This document shows, one piece after another, positions 8,701 through 22,180 of a DNA stretch of 64,000 nt. The stretch lies in assembly GCA_965198945.1 (NCBI GenBank), contig CBDAQI010000012.1:83964-147963 (forward strand), written 5' to 3'. Numbering within the stretch: the stretch's first letter is position 1; each line of letters opens with the position of its first letter. This DNA comes from Thermodesulfobacteriota bacterium. Its GTDB lineage: Bacteria > Desulfobacterota_D > UBA1144 > Nemesobacterales > Mycalebacteriaceae. Below the pieces are notes generated by a model. It made no database searches. It saw only the letters and a program-made list of their open reading frames with translations, and had not been told where the DNA came from. Both the position numbers and the translations under genes were made by a program.

Positions 8701-9608
8701 TGACAAATAATAATTTGCCTTTGGTGAGTGTTATCATTCTTTCGTACAACAGAAAGAATTGGTTGAGGCAGAGTTTGGATTCAATATTAGGTCAGGATTA
8801 CCCAAATATTGAAATAATTGCTTGTGATGATGCTTCCACAGACGGAAGCCAGGATGTTTTGCGTGAGTATAAAGAGAAAAATTCCCACAGAAGGTTTGTT
8901 CTGTCTCTTTCACCTCAAAACGATGGAATCACGGCAAATCAAAACAAAGGACTTTCTCTTTATCAGGGCAAATATGTTGTTTTCTCTGCGGATGATGACA
9001 TTATGCTTCCGAGTAAAATTTCCAAGCAAGTTCAATTTATGGAGAATGACCCCGACTGTTCAATTTGTTACCACAATATGGAAGTTTTTTATGATAACAC
9101 AAATAAAATTTTGAAGTTTTTCAACAATAAAAAAAACAGCCACGAAGGCGGCGTGGAACTTGCTATAAAATACGGGATGTTTTGCGGAGCTCCTTCATGC
9201 ATGTTCAGGGCTGAAAAAATTCCCGACGATGGCTGCAATCCCATAATTACCAATGCGTCTGATTGGCTTCTTGTGATAGAAGTTTTAATAGGGGGAGGCA
9301 GTATACGCTACATTGACGAAATTCTTGTGAGATACAGGAGACACATTAACGCCGATTCCATGAAAACCTATGACATGAATCCCGGCGATTTGGATACCCT
9401 GAATATATGTAACATTTTAATTACAAAATATCCTCATCTTTTCAATGAGGCAATTTATGCATATTCAAGATCCCTTGAAAAACTCAGAAATAAAAAAGGA
9501 ATTAATTATATGTCCGCTCTAATATCCAGCCTGCGACTGAGATTCAGGCTGAGTGCATTTGTTAGATTGCTTGCCTGTCTTTTTTCATTTGGCAGATTTA
9601 AATCTTAA
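8700..9608 (+). CDS. Glycosyltransferase family 2
   Basis: Motifs PLVSVIILSYN, DDASTDGS and ADD. Confidence 0.9.
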   Translation: MTNNNLPLVSVIILSYNRKNWLRQSLDSILGQDYPNIEIIACDDASTDGSQDVLREYKEKNSHRRFVLSLSPQNDGITANQNKGLSLYQGKYVVFSADDDIMLPSKISKQVQFMENDPDCSICYHNMEVFYDNTNKILKFFNNKKNSHEGGVELAIKYGMFCGAPSCMFRAEKIPDDGCNPIITNASDWLLVIEVLIGGGSIRYIDEILVRYRRHINADSMKTYDMNPGDLDTLNICNILITKYPHLFNEAIYAYSRSLEKLRNKKGINYMSALISSLRLRFRLSAFVRLLACLFSFGRFKS

Positions 9609-10814: not shown

Positions 10815-12023
10815 TCACTCATGTCTCAACGCTTCCACAGGATTCATTATTGACGCTTTTCTTGCGGGATAAATTCCGAAGAAAACACCCACAAGGGCGG
10901 AAAAACCGCAAGCGACCAAAACCGCTGAAAACGATATTTCAGCGGGCCAGCCCGTGAACAGAGAGGCGGTTTTTGAGATTGCGGCTCCAAGTATTATTCC
11001 CGCAATTCCCCCGACGAGTGAAAGCGTGAGAGATTCAACGAGAAATTGCCTCATTATGTCTTTCCGCCTTGCTCCGACAGCCATTCTTATTCCTATCTCC
11101 TTTGTCCTTTCGCTGACCGAAACCAGCATTATATTCATAATTCCCACACCTCCCACTATAAGAGATATTGACGCGATACTAATAAGCAGAATTTTCAAAA
11201 TCTGTGTTATTTCGGCTATTCGTTCAAGATTCTGCGAGTTGTTCCTGATGGCAAAATCATCTTTGTCTTCAGTTCCTATTTTATGATTCTTTCTCAAAAC
11301 AATGTTAATCTCCGCAATCGCCTCCATTATCCTGTCCGCGCTTCTGACCGCAAGAGAGATTTTTTCAATGTTTTTTTCCGAAAGCACTCTTTTTTGCAAG
11401 GTTGAATAGGGCATCAGAATTATATCGTCCTGGTCTATTCCGTTCGGTTTTACTCCGAGTTTCTGCATAGTTCCCACAACCTCACAGGTAAGATTGTCTA
11501 TTCTTATTTTTCCACCCATCGCAGATAACGTTCCAAACAGTTTTTTCTCAACGGTTTTACCCACCACACAGACCGGACGCGAATTTTCCGTATCATCGGA
11601 ACTGAAAAAAGTTCCGCTTACGGGGAACCAATCATTGATAAAAGTAAAATCCCGCGAAACTCCGACAATTTTTGTGTCCCACTGGTTTTTACCGTAAACG
11701 ACCGTTTTCTGCGTTCCGATGATTTCAGAAACAAATTCAACACTCGGCAGCCTCCTTATTGAATCCGCGTCCCGAACGGTAAGGGGTTTGCCGCCCGAAA
11801 ACCTGAACGGATTCCCGCTCGGACGCACCGTGCTTATAAGCATTGATTTCCCGCCCAGGCGCTCAAATTGCTCGCCTATCATCCTGCTCGCCCCTTGAGT
11901 TGTGGACACAAGCGACACCACAGCGGCGACTCCGATTATCACTCCGAGAGAGGTGAGCAACGAGCGGGCTTTGTTTGACATAATTGCCCTGTAGGCGATT
12001 GTTAAAGATCTGAAAGGCGGCAT
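10815..12023 (-). CDS. MacB/FtsX family ABC transporter permease
   Basis: Motifs RSLLTSLGVIIG, VGGVGIMNIMLVSVSERTKEIGIRMAVGA and PVEALRHE. Confidence 0.9.
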   Translation of the reverse strand: MPPFRSLTIAYRAIMSNKARSLLTSLGVIIGVAAVVSLVSTTQGASRMIGEQFERLGGKSMLISTVRPSGNPFRFSGGKPLTVRDADSIRRLPSVEFVSEIIGTQKTVVYGKNQWDTKIVGVSRDFTFINDWFPVSGTFFSSDDTENSRPVCVVGKTVEKKLFGTLSAMGGKIRIDNLTCEVVGTMQKLGVKPNGIDQDDIILMPYSTLQKRVLSEKNIEKISLAVRSADRIMEAIAEINIVLRKNHKIGTEDKDDFAIRNNSQNLERIAEITQILKILLISIASISLIVGGVGIMNIMLVSVSERTKEIGIRMAVGARRKDIMRQFLVESLTLSLVGGIAGIILGAAISKTASLFTGWPAEISFSAVLVACGFSALVGVFFGIYPARKASIMNPVEALRHE

Positions 12024-12114
12024 GGCTTTTGCCTGATTATAATACAGAAAAGGGCTTTGCGTCCGCAAATTTAGAGTTCAGGCGGCAAAAAGCCGCACGT
12101 GAGCGGGGCGGCTT

Positions 12115-13707
12115 TCAGTCAAAACTTCTGTAACGCCCCTTTTGAATTATCACTACCGCCAGCAGGCGAAGTGCGAGCCCCAGGGCGCACGCCGTTATAA
12201 GAAGCATTCCAAGCTCCGAATAGTTCGCTGCGGTTTGTATGATTTGAGTCGCTCCGTTTCTGATTTCGCGCGTTACGACAAAGATTTCATTCATATATTT
12301 TGTTCCGAGGCTGCTTGCCGACAGTGAAATGTTTGAAAATGACGCAAAGACTGCAAAAAAGGTCGCTTTGAGGTGTTCCGGGGCGTTTTTTGCTATCCAT
12401 GCAAGCATTGGTATCATCGCCACCTGTCCGAACGGGGATTCAAGAGCCGTGTTTACGATCGCTATGAACTTTGCATCCACGACTCCGTTTGTGTGTGCGG
12501 CGGTCCATTCATGAATTCCGTAAAAAAGCCCGATTCCGGGAAGCGCCATAACCGCATCAAGAATTGATAAAAACAATATGATGCCCACTATGCTGACCCT
12601 GCTCATCAGCGGCAGAGAGACCATCATTCCCACAAGCGTGAAAACGGAAACTATCAGATACAGATAAGACAGAAATTGCTCGTCAAACCCGAGTTCGTCT
12701 ATTTGAAACCATCCCTCTCCCGGTCCCACTCCCGGAACGGCACGAAAAACAAAAATGATCACCGCCGTTCCTATGAGTGTCGCTCGTGATTTGTCCGGCA
12801 GTTCGGCAATCAGTTTTCTCATAAGGAAGATGATGATTGCCATTGAACCCGCAAAAACTATTTCCTGGGAATAGGCTATTCCCGAAAGTCCCGTTCCGAT
12901 TGTGAACGCCACAAAAATCATGCTTCCGCCGAGAATCCACCAGTTGACCGAAATATTGGAATTTTCTCTTTCCCTGCTTATTCTGCCCTTCCTTTTAAGA
13001 AATTCGGCGAAAACAACTCCAATTATGGAGACAAGAGGAATTGCAAGCGCCATAAGATAGATATTGCCGTAAGTGATGACTTTCTGTTCCTCGCTCAGTT
13101 CTGAGACTCCGCTGAAAGCTATGATATTGATTATTGAAACCAGAACGGTGCCTCCGATAATCGCTACTCTGCCGAGAGTCTGCATTGTGGTATGCATGGA
13201 TTTCAGGGTTTTTTCATCAAATTTTTCACCGTTTTCATCTTTTTCGGGAACTGCCTCAACGGTCATCGCGTCTGCAACCACATCCTGAAGCATGTATCCA
13301 ACCGGGCTTATAATTACGCTCAGAATAAACCAGCTTGAACCCGACATGAACTGTTTCATATAAGCGGTGTGCGCTATCAGACCGTAGACAATCAGAAGTC
13401 CCGCCGAAATCAGCGCCGCCCCTAAGAAAATCAGTATGGATTTCCAGCGCCATATCAGGTCAACAATGTGTCCGATTGGCATTTTCAGAGCCCACGGAAG
13501 GCCCGCCCAGAAGCCCAGTCCCGCGAGGAAAGCGGCCGACAGATCAAGGTAGTCTTTGATAAAAAATGTGCCGACAATTCCGGTAATTCCCGATATTCCG
13601 GCCGCCAGATACACCATGAGCGGCGGGATGTAGCTAAGCCGCATCTGTCTGAAAAGATTTATGAGATCGGTTGCGAAGGATATGAAATTGCGGATTAGTC
13701 TATTCAT
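12115..13707 (-). CDS. BT1/folate-biopterin-like MFS membrane protein
   Basis: About 12 hydrophobic segments; LPWALKMPIG, DVVADAMTVE and ATFFAVFASFSN resemble BT1 family motifs. Confidence 0.6.
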   Translation of the reverse strand: MNRLIRNFISFATDLINLFRQMRLSYIPPLMVYLAAGISGITGIVGTFFIKDYLDLSAAFLAGLGFWAGLPWALKMPIGHIVDLIWRWKSILIFLGAALISAGLLIVYGLIAHTAYMKQFMSGSSWFILSVIISPVGYMLQDVVADAMTVEAVPEKDENGEKFDEKTLKSMHTTMQTLGRVAIIGGTVLVSIINIIAFSGVSELSEEQKVITYGNIYLMALAIPLVSIIGVVFAEFLKRKGRISRERENSNISVNWWILGGSMIFVAFTIGTGLSGIAYSQEIVFAGSMAIIIFLMRKLIAELPDKSRATLIGTAVIIFVFRAVPGVGPGEGWFQIDELGFDEQFLSYLYLIVSVFTLVGMMVSLPLMSRVSIVGIILFLSILDAVMALPGIGLFYGIHEWTAAHTNGVVDAKFIAIVNTALESPFGQVAMIPMLAWIAKNAPEHLKATFFAVFASFSNISLSASSLGTKYMNEIFVVTREIRNGATQIIQTAANYSELGMLLITACALGLALRLLAVVIIQKGRYRSFD

Positions 13708-13866
13708 TTTTTAGGAAGGCGGGTTTTGAAGCCAAGAGGGTAATTTATTGGATGTTTTTTGCAAATTGGCTTGGTAGGAGGGAGTGAAAATTTTCCGTAG
13801 TTAAGTTTTTCTTCCTGAAAAGATTTCAGGTTGTGATTTTTTGCCGACAATTACATTATGAATACT

Positions 13867-13989
13867 GGATTCCCGTTTGCAAGGGAATGACGATGGGGAG
13901 TTTTTCCCGCAATTCCCATTTTCCCGTCATTTCCGCAAAAGCATGTCCCCGTGAAAGCTTGTCCTCATGAAAATGGGGACGGCAATTCA
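13867..13989. repeat. REP-like palindrome cluster (CGTC-tagged, dRS3-like)
   Basis: ATTCCC-N8-GGGAAT at 13869-13888, plus a nested hairpin element starting with CGTC at 13925. Related copies occur at 61141 and 62851-62969. Confidence 0.75.
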
Positions 13990-14093
13990 GAAGGCATGGG
14001 GAGCAAAACATAGCAAGCGGGACACCAAGTCATATTTCACTCAGTTCAAACAGAAGTATGAACAGGGGGGTGAGCGGAGCCGAACCCCGAAAC

Positions 14094-14393
14094 GTTGTGA
14101 ATTGAGGGCAGGTTTCAGTCAGTTACAATTCCTTGAGTTGTCCACAATTTTCAACACTAGTTGTGAATTGAGGGCAGGTTTCAGTCAGTTACAATCTGGG
14201 AGCAAAGCGAATGGGGGGCGAAACAGTTGTGAATTGAGGGCAGGTTTCAGTCAGTTACAATTCCTTGAGTTGTCCACAATTTTCAACACTAGTTGTGAAT
14301 TGAGGGCAGGTTTCAGTCAGTTACAATCTGGGAGCAAAGCGAATGGGGGGCGAAACAGTTGTGAATTGAGGGCAGGTTTCAGTCAGTTACAAT
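14094..14393 (+). CRISPR. CRISPR array, 5 repeats and 4 spacers, type II-C
   Basis: Identical 36-nt repeat GTTGTGAATTGAGGGCAGGTTTCAGTCAGTTACAAT at 14094, 14160, 14226, 14292 and 14358, with 30-nt spacers. Spacer 1 = spacer 3 and spacer 2 = spacer 4. Orientation inferred from the tracrRNA. Confidence 0.98.
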
Positions 14394-14443
14394 AGCTATC
14401 CCTCAAATGCAATGGTGGCAAGGGGTTATGGCTCTCCGGCAAA

Positions 14444-14773
14444 TCAAAAAAGAGTGATTTGCTGGGGAGTTGTCTCCGCCTTCTTCCGTTTCTTCCCATA
14501 AAACACCTGCATTCGTCCGAACTGTTTGTCCGTAATAATAATCACCCGCACTTCTCCTTGCGGAGGCAGCCACTCTCTCACTCTTCCCGAATGAACAAAT
14601 GCATTTTCTTCACTTGCGCAATGTCTGGCATATACGGAGAACTGCATCATTATAAATCCGTCCCGCATAATATGCTTTCTAAATCTTGCGTAGTCTTTCC
14701 GTGCCTTCTTCGTGTCTGTTGGAAGGTCAAACATCACTATTACCCACATAGTTCTGTATCCTCCGAAAGCCAT
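14444..14773 (-). CDS. cas2: CRISPR-associated endonuclease Cas2
   Basis: Motifs MWVIVMFDLPT and GFIMMQFSVYAR; lies next to the array. Confidence 0.97.
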   Translation of the reverse strand: MAFGGYRTMWVIVMFDLPTDTKKARKDYARFRKHIMRDGFIMMQFSVYARHCASEENAFVHSGRVREWLPPQGEVRVIIITDKQFGRMQVFYGKKRKKAETTPQQITLF

Positions 14774-14775
14774 TT

Positions 14776-15684
14776 CTAAACCTCAATTCTCATTTGTCTG
14801 TTTTCAATCAGTTCCGGTATTTTCAAACACTCAACCCCTTCTGAAAAAGCTTTCTTAAGGCTCGCCGCCATATGCTGGTTTGCCACCATCATCGGCAGTT
14901 TCTTTCCTTCAAACAGAACATCTTCTGAAAGAAGAGACAGCAATGACATTTTTGTTGTAGTATCAATCTCATTTCTCCCATGCTCGTTCAGTTCATAAAC
15001 ACGTCTGTCAACAAGAGGACGCAACGGTTCAATAAGGTCGTCCGCAAGGCACATCGGGTTATATTGGTTGTGGTGATGAATCCCGAGCGCCGGATGAAGC
15101 CCCGTTCCGCACAAAGCACGGGCGACGGATGCTCTGACGATGCTGTATCCGTAGTTGAGTAGAGAGTTGATTCCTTCTTCTTTGTAATTTCTGGAAAACT
15201 GTTTTCCAAACAGTTTTGACCAGTATACCCTCGCCGCCTGCGCCTCAATATTTCTCGTGTCACCGCTTAAGACTCTTTTTTTGAATCCGGGAAGAGGGGA
15301 GGGGTCTTTTTTGAAAAAAAGCAGTGTCCGAATCTGTGCTTCTGTTTTGGCAATTATGACTTTCTGCCAGAGTCGTTTTTTTAGAGGTTTTTTGACGCCC
15401 GTCTGTAAATTGAGGACTTTGCTGTGGGTTGAATTGCCGGAAAGGGGTAGCAAAACGGAAACCGGAAGATGGCTCCGGTCACAAAAAACTATTATGCAGT
15501 TGTTTTTCTGACATTCGGCTATGAGGCTCTGAGAGATTGAAATTGCGGGATTGGCAAGTATGAGAATTCCCATGTCTTCTACGGGAATACTGCTTTCTTT
15601 TTCACCGTCTTTTTTGATAATCATCTGATAATCTTTCAGATGAAGATATGCAGGGTTGCTGACTTCAGTGATTCGCTTGATCAT
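14776..15684 (-). CDS. cas1: CRISPR-associated endonuclease Cas1 (type II)
   Basis: Motifs EAQAARVYW, NSLLNYGY, LGIHHHN and LADDLIEPLRP. Confidence 0.97.
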   Translation of the reverse strand: MIKRITEVSNPAYLHLKDYQMIIKKDGEKESSIPVEDMGILILANPAISISQSLIAECQKNNCIIVFCDRSHLPVSVLLPLSGNSTHSKVLNLQTGVKKPLKKRLWQKVIIAKTEAQIRTLLFFKKDPSPLPGFKKRVLSGDTRNIEAQAARVYWSKLFGKQFSRNYKEEGINSLLNYGYSIVRASVARALCGTGLHPALGIHHHNQYNPMCLADDLIEPLRPLVDRRVYELNEHGRNEIDTTTKMSLLSLLSEDVLFEGKKLPMMVANQHMAASLKKAFSEGVECLKIPELIENRQMRIEV

Positions 15685-15690
15685 TATGGA

Positions 15691-18600
15691 CTAAATTGTG
15701 TTTGTAAGGCTAAAACCTAAAGAGTTAATGGACTCTTTTTGCAATTTGTATTTAGTCATTAGGATGGAAATTGTCCTGCTTAGTTTTTCTTCATTATTAT
15801 CGAGCGTGGCGGCGGAGTGAAGTCTTAGCCATAGTATTTCTCCTTCTCTTTGGAATTTTTGCACTCTGTAAAATCTTCTTTCTCCTTTTTCTTCTACACT
15901 TACCGTATCATTTATGCACAAGCTCATAATAAATTTCCAGTCTTCTCCATGGTCAGTTTTAACAATCGGTTCTCTTGTAATTCTTACTTTTTTTTGCGGC
16001 TTCCATTGTGGTTACAAAAACACCTTTGGATCTGTTTGTTTTTTTATTCTTGATTATTTCTACATGGTGGCTGTTTCCATAAATCATTACACTTAATATT
16101 TTGTTACTGTTTTTCTTGGGTTTAAGCCAGTAATTTTTTTCACTAAACTCATTAGTTACCCAAACTTTTGCCCGTCTGACAATATCTCCGGTTTTTGGAT
16201 GCTTAAAAGCTTCTTCTTGCAGTTTTTTTTGAGCGCTTTTTAAGCCTCCTCTCATATTTACATATTGTTCAAATCCTTCTCTGATTGCCGGACATACTAT
16301 ATTTCTCAAATTTTTGTCCGTCATACCAGTCAGATTTTTGCTAACGACGATTCTCTTTTTACCATTGTCTTCTTTTATTCCATATGCGGTATCTTCATGG
16401 AATGCTCCCGTCAGTTTTCTATTTGTCGCGTGAGAGACAATCATTTTATTTGTCGCGCTTTCCAACTCATTCCTAAGGTTTTCAAGCACCTGCGGTATTT
16501 CCAATCCCGATTCTGGAGATATGGAATCATCATCCGCTTTTGAAGCGAGATGTACCACCTTTTGATATAGGCTTCTGTTTGTAAGGGCAATGACCGTTGC
16601 GTCAATCGCGTGATGCCTATGGTCGTTACGGTTTTTCTCTCCCGTATCTCCAAGGATGTTGTTCAGTCCCCATTGTCTTCGGAGCCAGCTTGTTATTCCG
16701 CCTTTGGTGAAAGTTACATCACAGCCGAGTGTTCTAATGTAATTTCCCGTTTCTTTTGCGATATAGCGGGCGTCTGATAACTGGCTGTTGATGAAATCTT
16801 CAATTCCATCCAACTTTTTTGTCAGAATTTTTCTGCGTTTTGCTTCGGGATAATTCTTGAGTTTTGCTATGGCTTCAATATTTTCCCATTGCTCTGTATT
16901 ACCAAATGCTTCCCATGGTGTTCTGTTGCCTTTCTTCCTATTTTCCTCCGCAAGACAGACCGTCTTGTTCATATAGTAATTATCAAGACTCCTGCTGTAT
17001 GGGAGTATGTGGTCTATTTCAACATCAGCAGACCAGAGTTGTGTCAGTCCTATAGGTTTCCCACTGTATAAACATTTACCTTCATTTTCTTTCCAGAGTC
17101 TGTATTTCTGTTTGTCCTGATGGCTTATGTATGTTTTCAACTGCAGGCCGGGTTCCTGCTCTTTTATGCTGTTGTATTTTTCTTCCGCTTCTTCATTTTC
17201 TTCTGTGTTTTTCTTTTGTCTTTCCAGTGCTTTTCTGTATTTCTCCGTATTCATTTCCAAATCACGAGACATTTCTATTCGTATCGCGGTTGGTTTTCCA
17301 TATTCTTTGATAATTGCATTTACGACACGGCGAACTTCATATAACGCCTTTGTAACAATGGGGTTTGGTATAAAGGGAATTTCTCCAAGAGTTTCTTTGT
17401 TTCCGGTTTCCGGCGTTGTAATATCTTCGTAACCGGCAATTTGAACCGCTCCTTTTTCTTCTTCTATGTCACTTTCTCGGCTGTAAACCCTGCCTTGCTT
17501 AAGGTGAGGCAGAATTTTGTTTATTGCTTTCAGGGACAGATTTCCGTGTCCCTTTTCCAATTCAAGAACCGCAAGTTTTGTTGCTTTTTCCGAGTCAATA
17601 TCCGGGTAGTTTTGAAGACGTTTTTTCAGTCCCTTTTTGGATTCGTATGAAATCAGATCTTCCACAAGCTGTTTTTGTTTTTTCTCATCAAAGGAGTCCC
17701 ACAAGTCTCCAATTATTTCTCTGATTCCACAGGCGGTTTTGTTTCCCTGAATGCCTTTTCTGCTTTTTCCTTCAACTTTGTACAAATTGAACTTTGTTTT
17801 CTTATTCAGGTTGAGGATTTCTTTTCCTCTGATCTTTGCCCATGTCAGATTTCTGTTTTTTTTCAAGTGCTTCGGCAATCAGTTTTTTCTGATCTGGCGA
17901 GGGTTTTGCATCTTTTTCTCCCGTTTCAGTGTCATCCCAACTTAAATTGTTTATGTCCTGCCAGTAACGGAATTGCTGAAACTCAAGTCGTCCCATATCT
18001 ACTCTTCTCTTTTTTGGTTCAAGAGAGCAGTTTCCTATGGTTTTCTTGTCCCAGGTTACGGGACGTTGGTGAAAGATAATTTTCTCAATTGCGCTTCTTA
18101 CATCTTCAGTGTAAATCTTCGGGTTTAGTTCGGACTGTTTACGGAAGATTTTTTCAAACTCTTCCTGATACATTCTGCGGTCTGTTCTGAGGTCATGAAG
18201 TTCTCCTCTGTTGCGTTTTCGGGGCAGGGTTGCAAGATACTCACCGAGAGTCCTTTTCCCATTTTCGCTTATCTTCTCTCGGAGCTTTTTAATATCTTCT
18301 TTGAATTTGCCTTCATCTTTGTCGGTTTCCGCGGCTTCGTCTTCAATTTCAAGGATTTCCCGCGCTTCCAAATCTTCACGCAAGTTTCCAAATCCCGTTT
18401 TGCGGTTGCTTAAAAATCCCCGTCGTGTTCCCAGATGCATTATTGCGCGTCCAAACTCATGTGGGGTCAAAATATCATCTAATCCTTTCGCTCTTATCTG
18501 ATATGGATCTCCAAGCTTATTAAATTCCGATTCCAGGTTTGGCTCGTCTTTGAGCGTCTCCGGCAGAAATCCCCTGCTTATAAGGTAGTTGCGAAGACGC

Positions 18601-18830
18601 AATTTACGTCTGTGCCGCCGTTCAATGACACGCCTTAAAAGACGTTTTGCTCTGCGGTGTTGGTTTTTCGGAGTGGGTGTTTTGTCTTCAACGGAGCGTA
18701 TGAATATACGGCTTCCACAATCAATAAAATTTTTCGGTTTGCCTTGTTCTTCCTCAATGACGCTCCAGCCGATTGAGTTTGTGCCCATATCAAGACCAAT
18801 TGCATATTCAGATAGTTTTGTCTTTTTCAT
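15691..18830 (-). CDS. cas9: Type II-C Cas9, frameshifted twice as sequenced (ORFs 17802-18830, 15959-17878, 15691-15927); 1045 aa if rejoined
   Basis: RuvC-I GLDMGTNSIGW, Arg-rich bridge helix, RuvC-II IEMSRD, HNH IDHILPYSRSLDN...NKTV...N and RuvC-III RHHAIDA. No csn2 or cas4 in the locus. Confidence 0.95.
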
Positions 18831-18841
18831 TTTCTCATCCC

Positions 18842-18873
18842 TTGACAGAATTTTTTCTGTAGTATAGTAATAT
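18842..18873 (+). promoter_or_regulatory. Putative sigma70 promoter for the tracrRNA
   Basis: TTGACA at 18842-18847 followed by AT-rich -10-like hexamers (TATAGT 18863-18868); spacing is not ideal. Confidence 0.45.
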
Positions 18874-18879
18874 TAGTAT

Positions 18880-18999
18880 ATTATAATTGACTGAAACCTG
18901 TCCAAGCATTTTTTCTATTCATAACAAGAAACTAATGTTTCGCAGGATAACCAGGGTAAACCTAATCGCCTCTCGCCTTAGGGCAGGGGCGATTTTTTT
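18880..18999 (+). ncRNA. tracrRNA
   Basis: ATTATAATTGACTGAAACCTGTCC...ATTCATAAC is complementary to the CRISPR repeat. It is followed by AAG, a GAAAC-taat-GTTTC hairpin and a terminator, and is divergent from cas9. Confidence 0.9.
18964..18999 (+). terminator. Rho-independent terminator of the tracrRNA
   Basis: AATCGCCTCTCGCC-ttag-GGCAGGGGCGATT stem followed by a T run. Confidence 0.8.
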
Positions 19000-19039
19000 A
19001 TCTTCTTTCAAGTATGTAAACTCACTTCCGTAGCAAAAA

Positions 19040-20473
19040 ATGAAAATCCCTCTCCAATTTCAATCCGATTTCCCCCCTGCGGGCGAGCTTGAAGTCACAA
19101 CCCCTTTTAACGGTCAAGTTATCGCAACTGTGGAAACGGCCGGGGAAAAACATCTGGACGGTCTTTTTGAAACCGCAAAAAAACTTTATGAAAACCGTGA
19201 GGGCTGGCTTACCGTTCACCAAAGGGCGCAAATTCTGGAACGGGCTTCTTCAATAATCACCGAACGCATGGACGATTTGATAATTCAGGCGGCGCGTGAG
19301 GGTGGAAAACCCTATAACGATTCAAAAGTGGAAATTTACAGAGCGGCGGACAGCGCAAAAATCGCCGCGGAAACAATTCGCACCGAAGCGGGAAATGTTA
19401 TTCCGATGGGCGGTGATCTTTACAGCGCGAACAGAGCGGCTTTTACACAAAAAGAGCCGATTGGGGTTGTCGTTGCGGTCAGCGCTTTTAATCATCCGCT
19501 TAACCTTATAGTTCATCAGGCGGGCGCCGCAATTGCCGCCGGATGTCCGGTTATCATCAAGCCCGCGAGTGAAACGCCGCTTTCATGCATATCCTTCAAA
19601 AACATACTCGTTGAAGCGGGGCTGCCGCCCGACTGGTGTCAGGTTGTTGTTACCGATTCAAACGAAACGGCTCAACTGCTCGCAACCGACAGGAGGACGG
19701 CGTTTTTCAGTTTTATAGGAAGCTCGCGGGTCGGCTGGATGCTGCGCTCCAAACTCGCTCCGGGAACACGCTGCGCCCTTGAACACGGCGGAGTGGCGCC
19801 GGCGCTTGTGTATGAAGACTCGGATATTGAACGCACCGCGTCTCTGCTTGCCAAAGGAGGCTTCTATCACGCGGGGCAGGTTTGCGTTTCCACCCAGCGC
19901 GTCTATGTGCAAAAAAATATCGCACCGAACTTTCTCTCATTTTTCCGCAGCGAAGCGGAAAGTCTTAAAGTCGGAGACCCCGCGCTTGAATCAACTCAAG
20001 TGGGGCCGCTTATCCGCCCGTCGGAAGTCAGGCGCGTTCACGAGTGGGTTTGTGAGGCCGTCAGCGAGGGAGCTGAACTTGTCTGCGGCGGAAACATTCT
20101 GTTTGACAGATGTTACGAACCGACCATTTTGCTCAACCCTCCGGATGCCGTTCGCGCCAGCCGTGAGGAAATTTTCGGTCCCGTGGTCTGCGTTTATGAG
20201 GTTGACGACATGGAAGATGCGATTGCGCGCGCGAACGGTCTTGGCATGGCGTTTCAATCTTCGGTTTTTACAAAAAATCTTGACACCGCTCTTGCCGCCG
20301 TGAAAAAATTGAGCGCTTCAGGCGTTATGGTGAATGATCACACCGCGTTCCGCATAGACGGAATGCCCTTCGGAGGGCTGAAGCAGTCCGGCCTCGGAAC
20401 CGGCGGCATTCCGCACACAATCAGAGATATGAGCATGGAGAAAATGGTTGTTTTCCGCTCAGACGCGATTTAG
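19040..20473 (+). CDS. NAD(P)-dependent aldehyde dehydrogenase family protein
   Basis: Motifs FNHPLN, IKPASETP, FIGS, LEHGG, AGQVCVS and EEIFGPV. Confidence 0.93.
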   Translation: MKIPLQFQSDFPPAGELEVTTPFNGQVIATVETAGEKHLDGLFETAKKLYENREGWLTVHQRAQILERASSIITERMDDLIIQAAREGGKPYNDSKVEIYRAADSAKIAAETIRTEAGNVIPMGGDLYSANRAAFTQKEPIGVVVAVSAFNHPLNLIVHQAGAAIAAGCPVIIKPASETPLSCISFKNILVEAGLPPDWCQVVVTDSNETAQLLATDRRTAFFSFIGSSRVGWMLRSKLAPGTRCALEHGGVAPALVYEDSDIERTASLLAKGGFYHAGQVCVSTQRVYVQKNIAPNFLSFFRSEAESLKVGDPALESTQVGPLIRPSEVRRVHEWVCEAVSEGAELVCGGNILFDRCYEPTILLNPPDAVRASREEIFGPVVCVYEVDDMEDAIARANGLGMAFQSSVFTKNLDTALAAVKKLSASGVMVNDHTAFRIDGMPFGGLKQSGLGTGGIPHTIRDMSMEKMVVFRSDAI

Positions 20474-20483
20474 TTTTTCCGTT

Positions 20484-21263
20484 TTACAAGTTTCCGCCGC
20501 AAACCTTTTCCGCATATCGCTCGGCGGCCTCGGCGATTTCCGGAAGCGGTTTGTTCAGTGAAATTCTCACCAGTTCCGCGCAGGCGGACTTCAAGTCTCC
20601 GGTTCTCACTTGAGCGTCCGCCAGATTCAGCCGGGCTTCATTGTATCCCGGAGCGAGTTCCAGAGCCGATTTGAACTGTTTTACGGCTCTTTTTCCCTTG
20701 AAAGTTTTACAAGCAGTTTCCCGTATTCGTTTCTGGAATAAATATTTGACGGCTCAAGTCTGATTGATTGTTTGAAAAAGCGCTCGGCGGAAACCGGATC
20801 ACCTTTCATTTCATACCCTCTTGCAACGTTGACAAGCGCAGCGTAACGAAGAGGATAGCCGATGTCTTGTGTTACAATCAGGCATTGCTCAATTGCTTCA
20901 TCAAATTTGCCCGTTTTAATATACAAACCGCAAAGGTTGTATCGGGCTTTTGCATAGTCGTTTTTAATCTCAAGAGCTTTTTTGTAGCTCATTTCCGCGG
21001 CGGCAAATTCCCGCAGACCGAAATACGCTATCCCCTTTATCAAATACAGTTCGGGATCGTCTTCGTTTTGGACTTCAGCTTTTTTCATTTCTGTTATGGC
21101 CCCCGTAAAATCCCCTCCCCGCACATATGAAGCGGCGAGATTTTTACGGTTGCGCAGAGTCATGGGAGCGTTTTTTTGCGGCTCCTCCGCAGGAACAAAA
21201 AAGCAGCGGAAGGGCGAGAAGCGCTGAAAAAAAGCCGAACTGTTTTTTCCCATTAAAACGCAT
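20484..21263 (-). CDS. TPR lipoprotein (PilF/PilW-like), two indels as sequenced
   Basis: TPR repeats lie in ORF 20681-21271. A lipoprotein signal MRFNGKKQFGFFSALLALPLLFCSC starts at 21263 in another frame, and a TPR continuation (AVKQFKSALELAPGYNEARLNLA) runs to a stop at 20484. Confidence 0.7.
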
Positions 21264-21277
21264 TGCCGCAAGCGGGG

Positions 21278-22180
21278 TTATATTTGAGACATCCTGAAAA
21301 AGTCGCCCAGACGGCTTTCAAATTGGTCTTTTTTCAGGTTTTTTATGCTTTCAGTTCCGAGTTTTTCCACCGTGAAAGAAGCAAGCACTGAGCCGTGAAT
21401 AACGGCTCTTTTCAGATTTTCATGACCGTTATGTCCGTTTTCACTCAAATATCCCATAAACCCGCCCGCAAAAGTGTCTCCGGCTCCGGTCGGGTCAACC
21501 GCCCGCTCCACCGGATATGCGGGTGAGCAGAACATTCCTTTGTCAGAGACCATCATGCAGCCGAATTCCCCTCTTTTGATTATGACAATTTGCGGCCCCA
21601 TTTTCCTTATCGCGCGCGCCGCCGCAATCGTGGAAGACTCTCCGCTCAGAGACAGCGCTTCGGAATTATTTATTATCAGTATGTTGACCATTTTCAGAGT
21701 TTTTTTAAGGTCCGGCAGGCTGTTGTCTATCCAGAAGTTCATCGTGTCACAAGCGACAATGCGCGGTGATTTCATCTGTTTGATAATTTCCATCTGTATT
21801 ACCGGGTCCATGTTTGCAAGAAACACGGACTCCGCATTTCTGAGACGTTCAGACAGATTCGGTCTGAAGTTTTCAAACACATTGAGATTGACGGAAAGCG
21901 TCTCCGGATCAGGTATGTTTCCGGAGTATCTGCCTTTCCAGCGGAAAGTTTTTCCGTCCGCGGTTTCAAGGCCCCGTGTGTCAACTCCGGCTTTCCTGAG
22001 AAGGTCTGAGTGCGGAGCCGGAAAGTCTTTTCCTATCACCGCCGAGATGCTCACTTTTGTGAACAGAGACGCGCCGAGGCATGAATACACCGCGGAGCCG
22101 CCGAGGACTTCCTCGCCTCTGTCAAGCGGTGTTTCTATGGAGTCAATCGCCACCGTTCCCACTATCAAAAGTTTGCTCAT
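21278..22180 (-). CDS. PfkB family sugar/nucleoside kinase
   Basis: Motifs LGGSA and VDPTGAGDTFAGGF. Confidence 0.92.
   Translation of the reverse strand: MSKLLIVGTVAIDSIETPLDRGEEVLGGSAVYSCLGASLFTKVSISAVIGKDFPAPHSDLLRKAGVDTRGLETADGKTFRWKGRYSGNIPDPETLSVNLNVFENFRPNLSERLRNAESVFLANMDPVIQMEIIKQMKSPRIVACDTMNFWIDNSLPDLKKTLKMVNILIINNSEALSLSGESSTIAAARAIRKMGPQIVIIKRGEFGCMMVSDKGMFCSPAYPVERAVDPTGAGDTFAGGFMGYLSENGHNGHENLKRAVIHGSVLASFTVEKLGTESIKNLKKDQFESRLGDFFRMSQI

Follow-up and report, generated by a model that had tools for sequence, protein, structure and literature searches.

Cme2Cas9, a thermostable enzyme with the PAM NAGNGC, was described from a compost metagenome and belongs to clade IX of Gasiunas et al. 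2020 (PMC7606464, supplementary files 6, 7, and 9). Its RNAs resemble those of the CRISPR-Cas9 locus found in the 64,000-nucleotide stretch of DNA analysed here (the window). The 36-nt repeat of Cme2Cas9 begins GTTGTG.ATT..GGGCAGG and equals the window repeat at 25 of 36 positions, counted by eye. The two tracrRNAs, again compared by eye, share a CAUAAC-AAG-hairpin-UUCGCAGGAUA...GGGUAAACC core with a GC-rich terminal hairpin after it. Cme2Cas9 and the window Cas9 are visibly alike in the N-terminal RuvC-I motif and in the arginine-rich helix, and the N-terminal motif of Cme2 was present in none of the homologues compared. From this by-eye comparison with the RNAs given in the cited files, the repeat and tracrRNA module is of the Cme2 (clade IX) type. 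The two Cas9 proteins are also of similar size (1008 aa in Cme2, 1045 aa in the window). The systems differ in the bulge of the tracrRNA, which is longer in the window (10 nt) than in Cme2. Moreover, Cme2 comes from compost, whereas the nearest named relatives of the window locus carry Candidatus Dadabacteria names.

Among solved structures, Nme1Cas9, GeoCas9, and ThermoCas9 (6jdq, 8uza and 8jtj, 9ar4) match the sequence best, over RuvC, bridge helix, REC, and HNH, with E values from 1e-24 to 8e-59. The alignment to Geo and Nme Cas9 passes through the RuvC-I Asp, and the loci have the same cas9-cas1-cas2 gene set as the window. In fold, too, the C-terminal third of a relative comes closest to these three enzymes, with a structure-based identity of 15–21%, while the last 260 residues of the window protein have no detectable sequence similarity to them. 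Type II-C repeats of Neisseria carry a −10-like box at the 3′ end, and each repeat of the window can be likened to them in this respect. Unlike in the Nme1, Geo, and ThermoCas9 loci, the window has its tracrRNA upstream of cas9, in divergent orientation.

Relatives of the window Cas9 are also found in metagenome-assembled genomes (MAGs) of Dadabacteria. The protein is 73.0% identical over 1042 aligned residues to P0002, annotated in GenBank as a Dadabacteria Cas9, and intact public relatives are 68–73% identical, one of them being listed in GenBank as the Cas9 of Candidatus Mycalebacterium zealandia. The locus of this organism and those of other Dadabacteria MAGs (names from the sources of P0002 and P0008) belong to the same clade and have the same locus order, the same tracrRNA position, and the same repeat family as the window. 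The Dadabacteria-clade Cas9 proteins compared here are uncharacterised, and a literature search found no publication on Dadabacteria Cas9 or on Mycalebacterium. An earlier note on this DNA had suggested a novel ortholog. In view of the public relatives at 68–73% identity and of a repeat and tracrRNA of the Cme2Cas9 type, that novelty was overstated; the window adds one more uncharacterised Cas9 ortholog to a clade already in public MAGs, and its biological weight is small.

The locus is a genuine, ordinary small type II-C Cas9 immune system of a Dadabacteria-like bacterium with a genome of 1.39 Mb. Between 14094 and 18999 it holds a five-repeat array, cas2, cas1, cas9, and a divergently transcribed tracrRNA, that is, all the parts which the earlier note had listed. 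Gene content, protein families, and catalytic motifs were observed directly, as were RNA complementarity, covariation, and synteny (see below). The cas2 gene (14444..14773, minus strand, 109 aa) matches Pfam CRISPR_Cas2 over positions 1–74 of 74 with E 3e-18 and scores 73 bits against TIGR01573 (cut-off 24.5). The cas1 gene (14776..15684, minus strand, 302 aa) is of the type II kind (TIGR03639 cas1_NMENI, 286 bits, cut-off 120), and its product is 79–84% identical to Cas1 of the six closest loci (L020–L025). Both genes adjoin cas9, and neither csn2, as in II-A, nor cas4, as in II-B, was found in the ORF list for 12000–22000 or among the profile matches. Only 50 nt separate cas2 from the array, and the neighbour genes of the locus are a transporter and an aldehyde dehydrogenase, which bears out the claimed absence of csn2 and cas4. 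The claim of a complete type II-C system with every guide part readable is thus supported.

The array (14094..14393) has the ~36-nt repeats and ~30-nt spacers of a CRISPR array, namely five identical 36-nt repeats, GTTGTGAATTGAGGGCAGGTTTCAGTCAGTTACAAT, and four 30-nt spacers, and it is the sole array in the genome. Its orientation, with crRNA transcription predicted from the plus strand, is fixed by the strand of the tracrRNA. The spacers are of two kinds only, since a 132-nt repeat-spacer-repeat-spacer unit occurs in two copies: spacer 1 lies at 14130-14159 and again at 14262-14291, and spacer 2 at 14196-14225 and again at 14328-14357, all on the plus strand. In a promoter consensus scan, a promoter-like TTGAGG-16-TACAAT ended at the last base of the repeat in five of five repeats, and the final bases of the relatives' repeats keep the TAnnnT form. 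Sequencing run X1 gave no contig on the window's spacers and repeat-only contigs at depths of 99 and 43 against 13–15 for the flanks, while in run X2 a contig with spacer 1 reached depth 4.6 where the flanks had 2; the array parts without cover in these runs bear neither on other spacers in X1 nor on the reality of the duplication. An exact 30-nt scan of viral contigs and metagenome contigs with both spacers returned no match outside the window's own array. Likewise, a blastn search of 50,697 phage records with the whole array and a search of 120 genomes of the phylum with both spacers, at up to three mismatches, gave no protospacer, and blastn-short found no self-target in the window's own genome. 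These searches covered the two spacers of this array and yielded no protospacer from which a PAM could be read.

The tracrRNA of ~120 nt (18880..18999, plus strand, with a predicted 5′ end) ends exactly where the earlier note had ended the locus. Along the plus strand it comprises anti-repeat helix 1 (18880-18903), a bulge (18904-18913), anti-repeat helix 2 (18914-18925), a nexus-like hairpin (18928-18941), a second small hairpin, and, from a terminator scan, a terminator (18973-18992) followed by a T7 run (18993-18999). The anti-repeat is complementary to the CRISPR repeat, with pairing at 34 of 36 positions in the window and at 29–35 of 36 in 11 relatives, where compensatory changes are seen; two-sided pairing changes are many, for example in L025. 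For L026 the second-ranked anti-repeat match was used, since its place upstream of cas9 agrees with that in the other loci, the top-scoring one being beside a second array. In 12 of 12 related loci the tracrRNA is conserved, upstream of cas9 and in antisense orientation to it. Compensatory change is found in 7 of the 15 pairs of the three tail hairpins, and the tail has a folding energy of −27.8 kcal/mol (z −3.7). A search of 13500-19500 against Rfam, at E up to 1, was negative. The putative tracrRNA promoter has a −35 box TTGACA at 18842..18847 (plus strand), read from the sequence 32 nt upstream of the anti-repeat, and 8 of the 11 loci for which the correct upstream stretch was compared have TTGAC at the corresponding position. 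The consensus promoter scan did not list this site because its −10 is imperfect. A minus-strand tracrRNA was considered and rejected, as only 52 nt lie between the anti-repeat and the cas9 start and no terminator is present there; the terminator and the conserved hairpins are on the plus strand, which was preferred.

The cas9 gene (15691..18830, minus strand) is spread in the window over three frames, 18830-17802, 17878-15959, and 15993-15691, of 342, 639, and 78 aa, and as written the window encodes no full-length Cas9. Dropping one base from each of two T8 runs of the plus strand (15988-15995 and 17856-17863) yields a single ORF, which reproduces the 1045 aa reported earlier for the rejoined protein, and no in-frame stop or further lesion was found in the 1045 codons. 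The translations contain IGLDMGTNSIGW, IRIEMSRDL, EIDHILPYS...NKTVC...N, and DHRHHAIDA, which are the RuvC and HNH catalytic motifs. Their retention, as claimed before, is backed by Pfam matches to HNH_4 (1–54 of 54) and RuvC_III (4–178 of 179), and the protein has the split RuvC-like nuclease with an inserted HNH nuclease of a Cas9 effector. Of the 1070 positions of TIGR01865, the first piece covers 1–326 and the second 317–957, with 226 and 402 bits, respectively (cut-off 100). Conservation against the relatives is even along the protein. Decay of cas9 does occur in the phylum: the gene is disrupted in three relatives, by an extra A in an A8 run in G059, by a frame change without a long run at the site in G025, and by a 1.8-kb insertion with a UPF0236 transposase-like ORF in G060.

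Both frame breaks of the window, the first at 17856..17863 and the second at 15988..15995 (minus strand), fall in coding-strand A8 runs with one base too many. The match to homologues changes frame at each of them, and intact homologues of 1040–1062 aa align straight through both. A contig of run X1 (record 4, 3631 nt, depth 13.4) spans 14365-17997 and differs from the window only by two one-base gaps, at 15988 and 17856, with no letter changed; this contig is without both extra bases of the two +1 breaks of the window, and with those bases removed the ORF is of 1045 aa. X1 is an independent assembly of a public run but may be the source sample of the window, so that independence of the sample is not assured. 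In run X2 two contigs of depth 2 end and begin inside the run 15988-15995. Breaks of the same kind were observed in dnaE, the PHP domain of which is split at the A9 run C1:157911-157919 into profile positions 1–54 and 49–163, and in a Mur ligase gene, where Mur_ligase_M is split at the A9 run C10:110934-110942 into 1–115 and 111–199; both genes are presumably essential. The downstream frame is +1 in all four breaks. Since X1 lacks both bases and dnaE and the Mur ligase are broken alike, the two cas9 breaks most probably come from the assembly and not from real damage. Over-called homopolymers are common in assemblies. The present assembly seems to over-call long A/T runs, and the broken cas9, dnaE, and Mur ligase should not be called pseudogenes without a read check. 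The error, if it is one, is not systematic, because a third A8 run in cas9 (16223-16230) is alike in both assemblies and most A8 runs within long open frames leave those frames unbroken. Genome-wide, frame-switch signatures were seen in 13 of 594 strand instances at runs of 8 and in 39 of 2016 at runs of 7, which is no clear enrichment at the longer runs. Of 17 candidates at runs of 8 or more, 14 were tested with Pfam; the cas9 site, C5:78530 (same junction as C5:78572), and C4:91436 (downstream frame of only 34 aa) were dropped. The tested ones comprise two split domains, three plain gene junctions with different families on each side, and nine without assignment.

We consider it highly probable that the window holds a working type II-C CRISPR-Cas9 adaptive immune locus, long resident in a small Dadabacteria-like genome, and that the cas9 breaks are single-base over-calls of A7 runs. 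Alternatively, cas9 could have been truly inactivated by two slipped-strand insertions, leaving a remnant in decay, in which cas1, cas2, the tracrRNA, and a minimal array are retained. The window sequence itself has both breaks, the array has only two distinct, duplicated spacers while the relatives' arrays have 3–41 unique ones, roughly 200 across the clade, and cas9 is broken in G059, G025, and G060 as well. Nevertheless, such a remnant is improbable in view of the X1 contig, which is uninterrupted and shows otherwise no difference in 3.6 kb, of the 1045 codons free of stops or other lesions, and of the even conservation of Cas9; moreover, the same kind of break in dnaE and the Mur ligase would be lethal if real. 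Polymerase slippage that restores frames on A tracts has been reported for insect endosymbionts. Here the extra A's at both cas9 sites, in dnaE, and in the Mur ligase would be real in the chromosome and tolerated, function being kept by slippage of RNA polymerase on A8–A9 runs that restores the frame in some transcripts, and cas9 would be low-dose or phase-variable. It would suit this idea that the four breaks all shift the frame by +1 within A8 or A9 runs, that two hit presumed essential genes, that the genome is small, and that cas9 of G059 has the same kind of break. An uninterrupted form of the DNA exists in run X1, however, and over-calls of homopolymers are commonplace in assemblies, so that slippage is very unlikely. 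If true, a streamlined bacterium would run essential genes and Cas9 at a reduced or switchable dose, and the A8 break in cas9 of G059 would be a second instance.

A long residence of the locus is indicated by its surroundings. The earlier note had taken the AT-richness of the locus and the REP-like elements at one border as a suggestion of import. Both observations hold: the GC content of cas9 is 0.36–0.42 against 0.45–0.55 in the flanks and 0.479 in the genome, and the spacer region 13855-13990 matches 42 other places of the genome on both strands. The conclusion drawn from them is not supported. The REP-like element is a genome-wide dispersed repeat, and a low GC content of cas9 (0.39–0.42) was found in six of six loci measured, whatever the GC content of the flanks. 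Of 120 genomes of the phylum, 16 have a Cas9 relative, and within the genus four of the five other genomes do. In two genomes of the genus, G028 and G025, the locus is likewise bordered by the transporter and the aldehyde dehydrogenase genes, whereas G024 and G026 each share a single flank. Because genomes of the genus have it between the same housekeeping genes, the locus was not imported recently. Divergence of the flanking proteins is on a par with that of the Cas proteins; for instance, in the closest genome, G028 (L020), flank proteins are 71–81% identical and Cas proteins 68–84%. A recently imported island would fit the cas9 GC content of 0.40 against 0.479 for the genome, and also the Cas9 of other families (G089, G019), which are 70% identical against 70–72% within the genus while the flanks differ. 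With the insertion site shared, the neighbours about equally diverged, the REP-like element at 42 other sites, and no integrase or transposase ORFs in the ORF list of the locus, it is scarcely credible. The similarity of the G089 and G019 sequences hints at older transfers within the phylum.

For the resident locus the following mechanism is proposed, in which transcription starts, processing, activity, and PAM are inferred. Cas1 and Cas2 would put 30-nt spacers into the array. The crRNAs would be transcribed from the plus strand, towards cas2, and probably start from the −10-like TACAAT box ending each repeat, so that their predicted 5′ ends lie within the spacers, a few bases beyond the box. 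In type II-C systems of Neisseria and Campylobacter, crRNAs are made from repeat-internal promoters, independent of RNase III. The tracrRNA would be transcribed from its own plus-strand promoter, divergent from cas9, and would pair with the repeat in helices of 12 bp and 24 bp with the 10-nt bulge between them on the tracrRNA side. The 1045-aa Cas9 is predicted to bind the nexus-like hairpin and the two 3′ hairpins of the tracrRNA and to cut spacer-matching DNA adjoining a PAM. This Cas9, with its fully defined crRNA:tracrRNA pair, is of modest practical value.

No solved Cas9 matches the C-terminal 260 residues in sequence, in agreement with the earlier remark that this region is unlike well-known orthologs, and the PAM therefore cannot be read off a known ortholog. 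The motifs taken as a sign of novelty, HHVEI, FVTTMEAA, LCIND, and YRVQK, turned out to be consensus residues of the clade. The fold was examined on the relative G026, which is 66% identical to the window protein over the last 250 residues. In a model of its last 330 aa (pLDDT 84.6), the structure agrees with the C-terminal parts of Nme1, Thermo, Geo, Hpa, and Sa Cas9 at a probability of 1.00. Judged from this model of a relative, the C-terminal WED and PAM-interacting domain is present and is predicted to have the usual Cas9 fold. Over the last 250 residues the window protein is only 57–66% identical to its clade relatives, so that a third or more of the PAM-interacting region is different even in the closest of them and the PAM may differ even within the clade.

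The locus comprises, on the minus strand, cas9 (15691–18830; TIGR01865 of NCBIfam), which occupies three frames in the window, cas1 (14776–15684; 302 aa), which scores 286 bits with cas1_NMENI against a cut-off of 120 as a type II Cas1, and cas2 (14444–14773; 109 aa), named as Cas2 by both Pfam and NCBIfam. A gap of 50 bases separates cas2 from a CRISPR array (14094–14393), in which four 30-nt spacers alternate with five identical 36-nt repeats. Neither csn2 nor cas4 was found at the locus, the neighbours being a folate/biopterin-type transporter and an aldehyde dehydrogenase. This set of genes corresponds to subtype II-C. The kind of system claimed in the earlier note, type II-C CRISPR-Cas9, and every item observed there (cas9, cas1, cas2, array, tracrRNA, absence of csn2 and cas4) were right.

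Both frame changes of cas9 lie within A8 runs of the coding strand (T8 runs of the plus strand at 15988–15995 and 17856–17863), and seven intact homologues of 1040–1062 aa align straight through them. The downstream frame is +1 at each break, which means one base too many at each. Contigs from two public sequencing runs, X1 and X2, were aligned to window 14000–19100. The X1 contig (3631 nt, depth 13.4) spans 14365–17997 without a single substitution and differs from the window only by two gaps, one base missing at 15988 and one at 17856; removal of those two bases leaves a single ORF of 1045 aa, the very length that had been proposed for the rejoined protein. The X2 contigs (depth 2) are broken inside the run at 15988, and the third A8 run of cas9 (16223–16230) is the same in the window and X1 assemblies. 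Real variants are the less likely reading of the extra bases. In the whole assembly, a frame-switch signature was found at 17 places with runs of at least 8; 14 were tested with Pfam, giving two single domains cut in two, three ordinary gene junctions and nine undecided cases. The two cut domains are the PHP domain of DNA polymerase III alpha (profile 1–54/49–163; A9 run, G000:C1:157911–157919, locus L031) and the Mur ligase middle domain, Mur_ligase_M (1–115/111–199; A9 run, G000:C10:110934–110942, locus L041), G000 being the window's own assembly. In both, the halves abut and the downstream frame is +1, probably through homopolymer over-calling in the assembly. Because such breaks occur in genes which we take to be essential, and because of the X1 contig, assembly over-calls are the best reading of the cas9 breaks as well.

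Interrupted cas9 genes were also seen in relatives. The gene is in two frames in both G059 and G025: in the former (L015 ~1500–1520) the frame switches at an A8 run that immediately precedes the DHRHH motif, and in the latter (L024 ~9198–9295) there is no long run at the switch. The cas9 of G060 (L030 5996–7802) carries a 1.8-kb insertion after about residue 120, coding for a DUF6788 protein and a UPF0236 (transposase-like) fragment.

The read-through Cas9 is 73.0% identical to P0002, a public homologue, 67.5–71.6% to six other close relatives and 45–48% to the next tier. By source name, the closest public relatives are the Cas9 of Candidatus Mycalebacterium zealandia and that of Candidatus Dadabacteria; no paper linking Dadabacteria with Cas9, and none on Mycalebacterium, was found in the literature searches. 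The suggestion of a novel ortholog was therefore too hopeful, and these identities place the protein as a further ortholog within a clade already public. The C-terminal motifs quoted in the earlier note are consensus residues of the clade. Over the last 250 residues, identity is lower, at 57–66% to close relatives and 34–40% to the next tier. The best matches among solved structures are type II-C Cas9s (ThermoCas9 9ar4, GeoCas9, Nme1Cas9), which cover the N-terminal and nuclease parts only; for the last 260 residues no sequence match was found among solved structures. The C-terminus is thus unlike the solved orthologs in sequence, as had been remarked, but probably not in fold. A model of the C-terminal 330 residues of the intact G026 relative (54-row alignment, pLDDT 84.6) has fold matches, with probability 1.00 and at 15–21% identity, in the C-terminal parts of Nme1, Thermo, Geo, Hpa and Sa Cas9, suggesting a fold usual for Cas9 with diverged sequence. 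Sequence divergence is normal in PAM-interacting domains.

Import of the locus, which the earlier note had proposed, was not supported by comparison with related genomes. Among 120 genomes of the phylum, 16 (the window's included) have a Cas9 relative, as do four of the genus's five other genomes. The locus has this transporter and this dehydrogenase as its two neighbours in G028 and G025 too; in G024 the dehydrogenase flank is conserved and the contig stops at the array, and in G026 the transporter flank alone is conserved. The seven loci of other families have no flank gene in common with the window. In G028, the closest genome, flank proteins are 71–81% and Cas proteins 68–84% identical, and the locus has therefore diverged together with the chromosome. 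As cas9 GC is constant (0.39–0.42 in all six loci measured) while flank GC varies (0.41–0.57), the low GC is a trait of the cas9 gene lineage. The REP-like repeat at 13855–13990, with inverted core GGGAATGACG/CGTCATTTCC, is dispersed, with 42 further matches on both strands of nine contigs (C1, C4, C5, C6, C9, C10, C11, C12 and C13), often clustered, as at C10:17793–26610 and C13:237549–241951. Taken together, these observations lend no support to recent import. Exchange within the phylum at an older date is possible, since other-family Cas9 is as similar (70%) as same-genus Cas9.

Upstream of cas9, 24 nt of the plus strand (18880–18903) match the reverse complement of the repeat's 3′ two-thirds; after a 10-nt bulge, another 12 nt pair with the repeat's first 12 nt, and in all 34 of the 36 repeat positions are paired. 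A TTGACA box precedes the anti-repeat by 32 nt, and the downstream tail holds a nexus-like hairpin, then another small hairpin, then a terminator whose T7 run ends at 18999. All 11 related loci compared, from genomes of the same phylum, have the same RNA in the same position and strand, with 29–35 of 36 positions paired and many two-sided changes; in L025, six repeat positions are changed and the anti-repeat is changed to match. RNAalifold returned three tail hairpins, 7 of 15 pairs being maintained through two-sided changes. This pairing and covariation point to transcription of both crRNA and tracrRNA from the plus strand, opposite the cas genes. All five repeats terminate in TACAAT, preceded by TTGAGG at a spacing of 16 nt, and the repeats of relatives retain a TAnnnT form at this end. 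Repeat-internal promoters are known in Neisseria and Campylobacter, and the TTGAGG-16-TACAAT arrangement is consistent with putative promoters of this type. A promoter-like TGGACA-18-TATACT on the minus strand (18875–18904) faces cas9 from inside the anti-repeat region, and thus the cas9 and tracrRNA promoters may overlap back to back.

The compost-metagenome Cme2Cas9 is a 1008-aa protein of clade IX with PAM NAGNGC (PMC7606464). Its repeat has 25 of 36 positions in common with the window repeat, counted by eye, and the two tracrRNAs have a common core, CAUAAC-AAG-hairpin-UUCGCAGGAUA...GGGUAAACC. From this likeness of guide RNAs, Cme2Cas9 appears to be the closest characterised ortholog.

Only two of the four spacers are distinct, because a 132-nt repeat-spacer1-repeat-spacer2 unit is present in two perfect copies (14094–14357); the duplication could be due to unequal recombination or an assembly loop. 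No protospacer for either was found in any collection searched, so the search by which the PAM was to be inferred gave none, and the window genome contains neither a self-target nor a second array. Among 11 arrays of relatives, all spacers are unique in eight and 16/18, 24/25 and 41/42 in the remaining three. A further block of the same repeats lies 2.8–4.3 kb from the main array in G048 (L026), G062 (L028) and G060 (L030).
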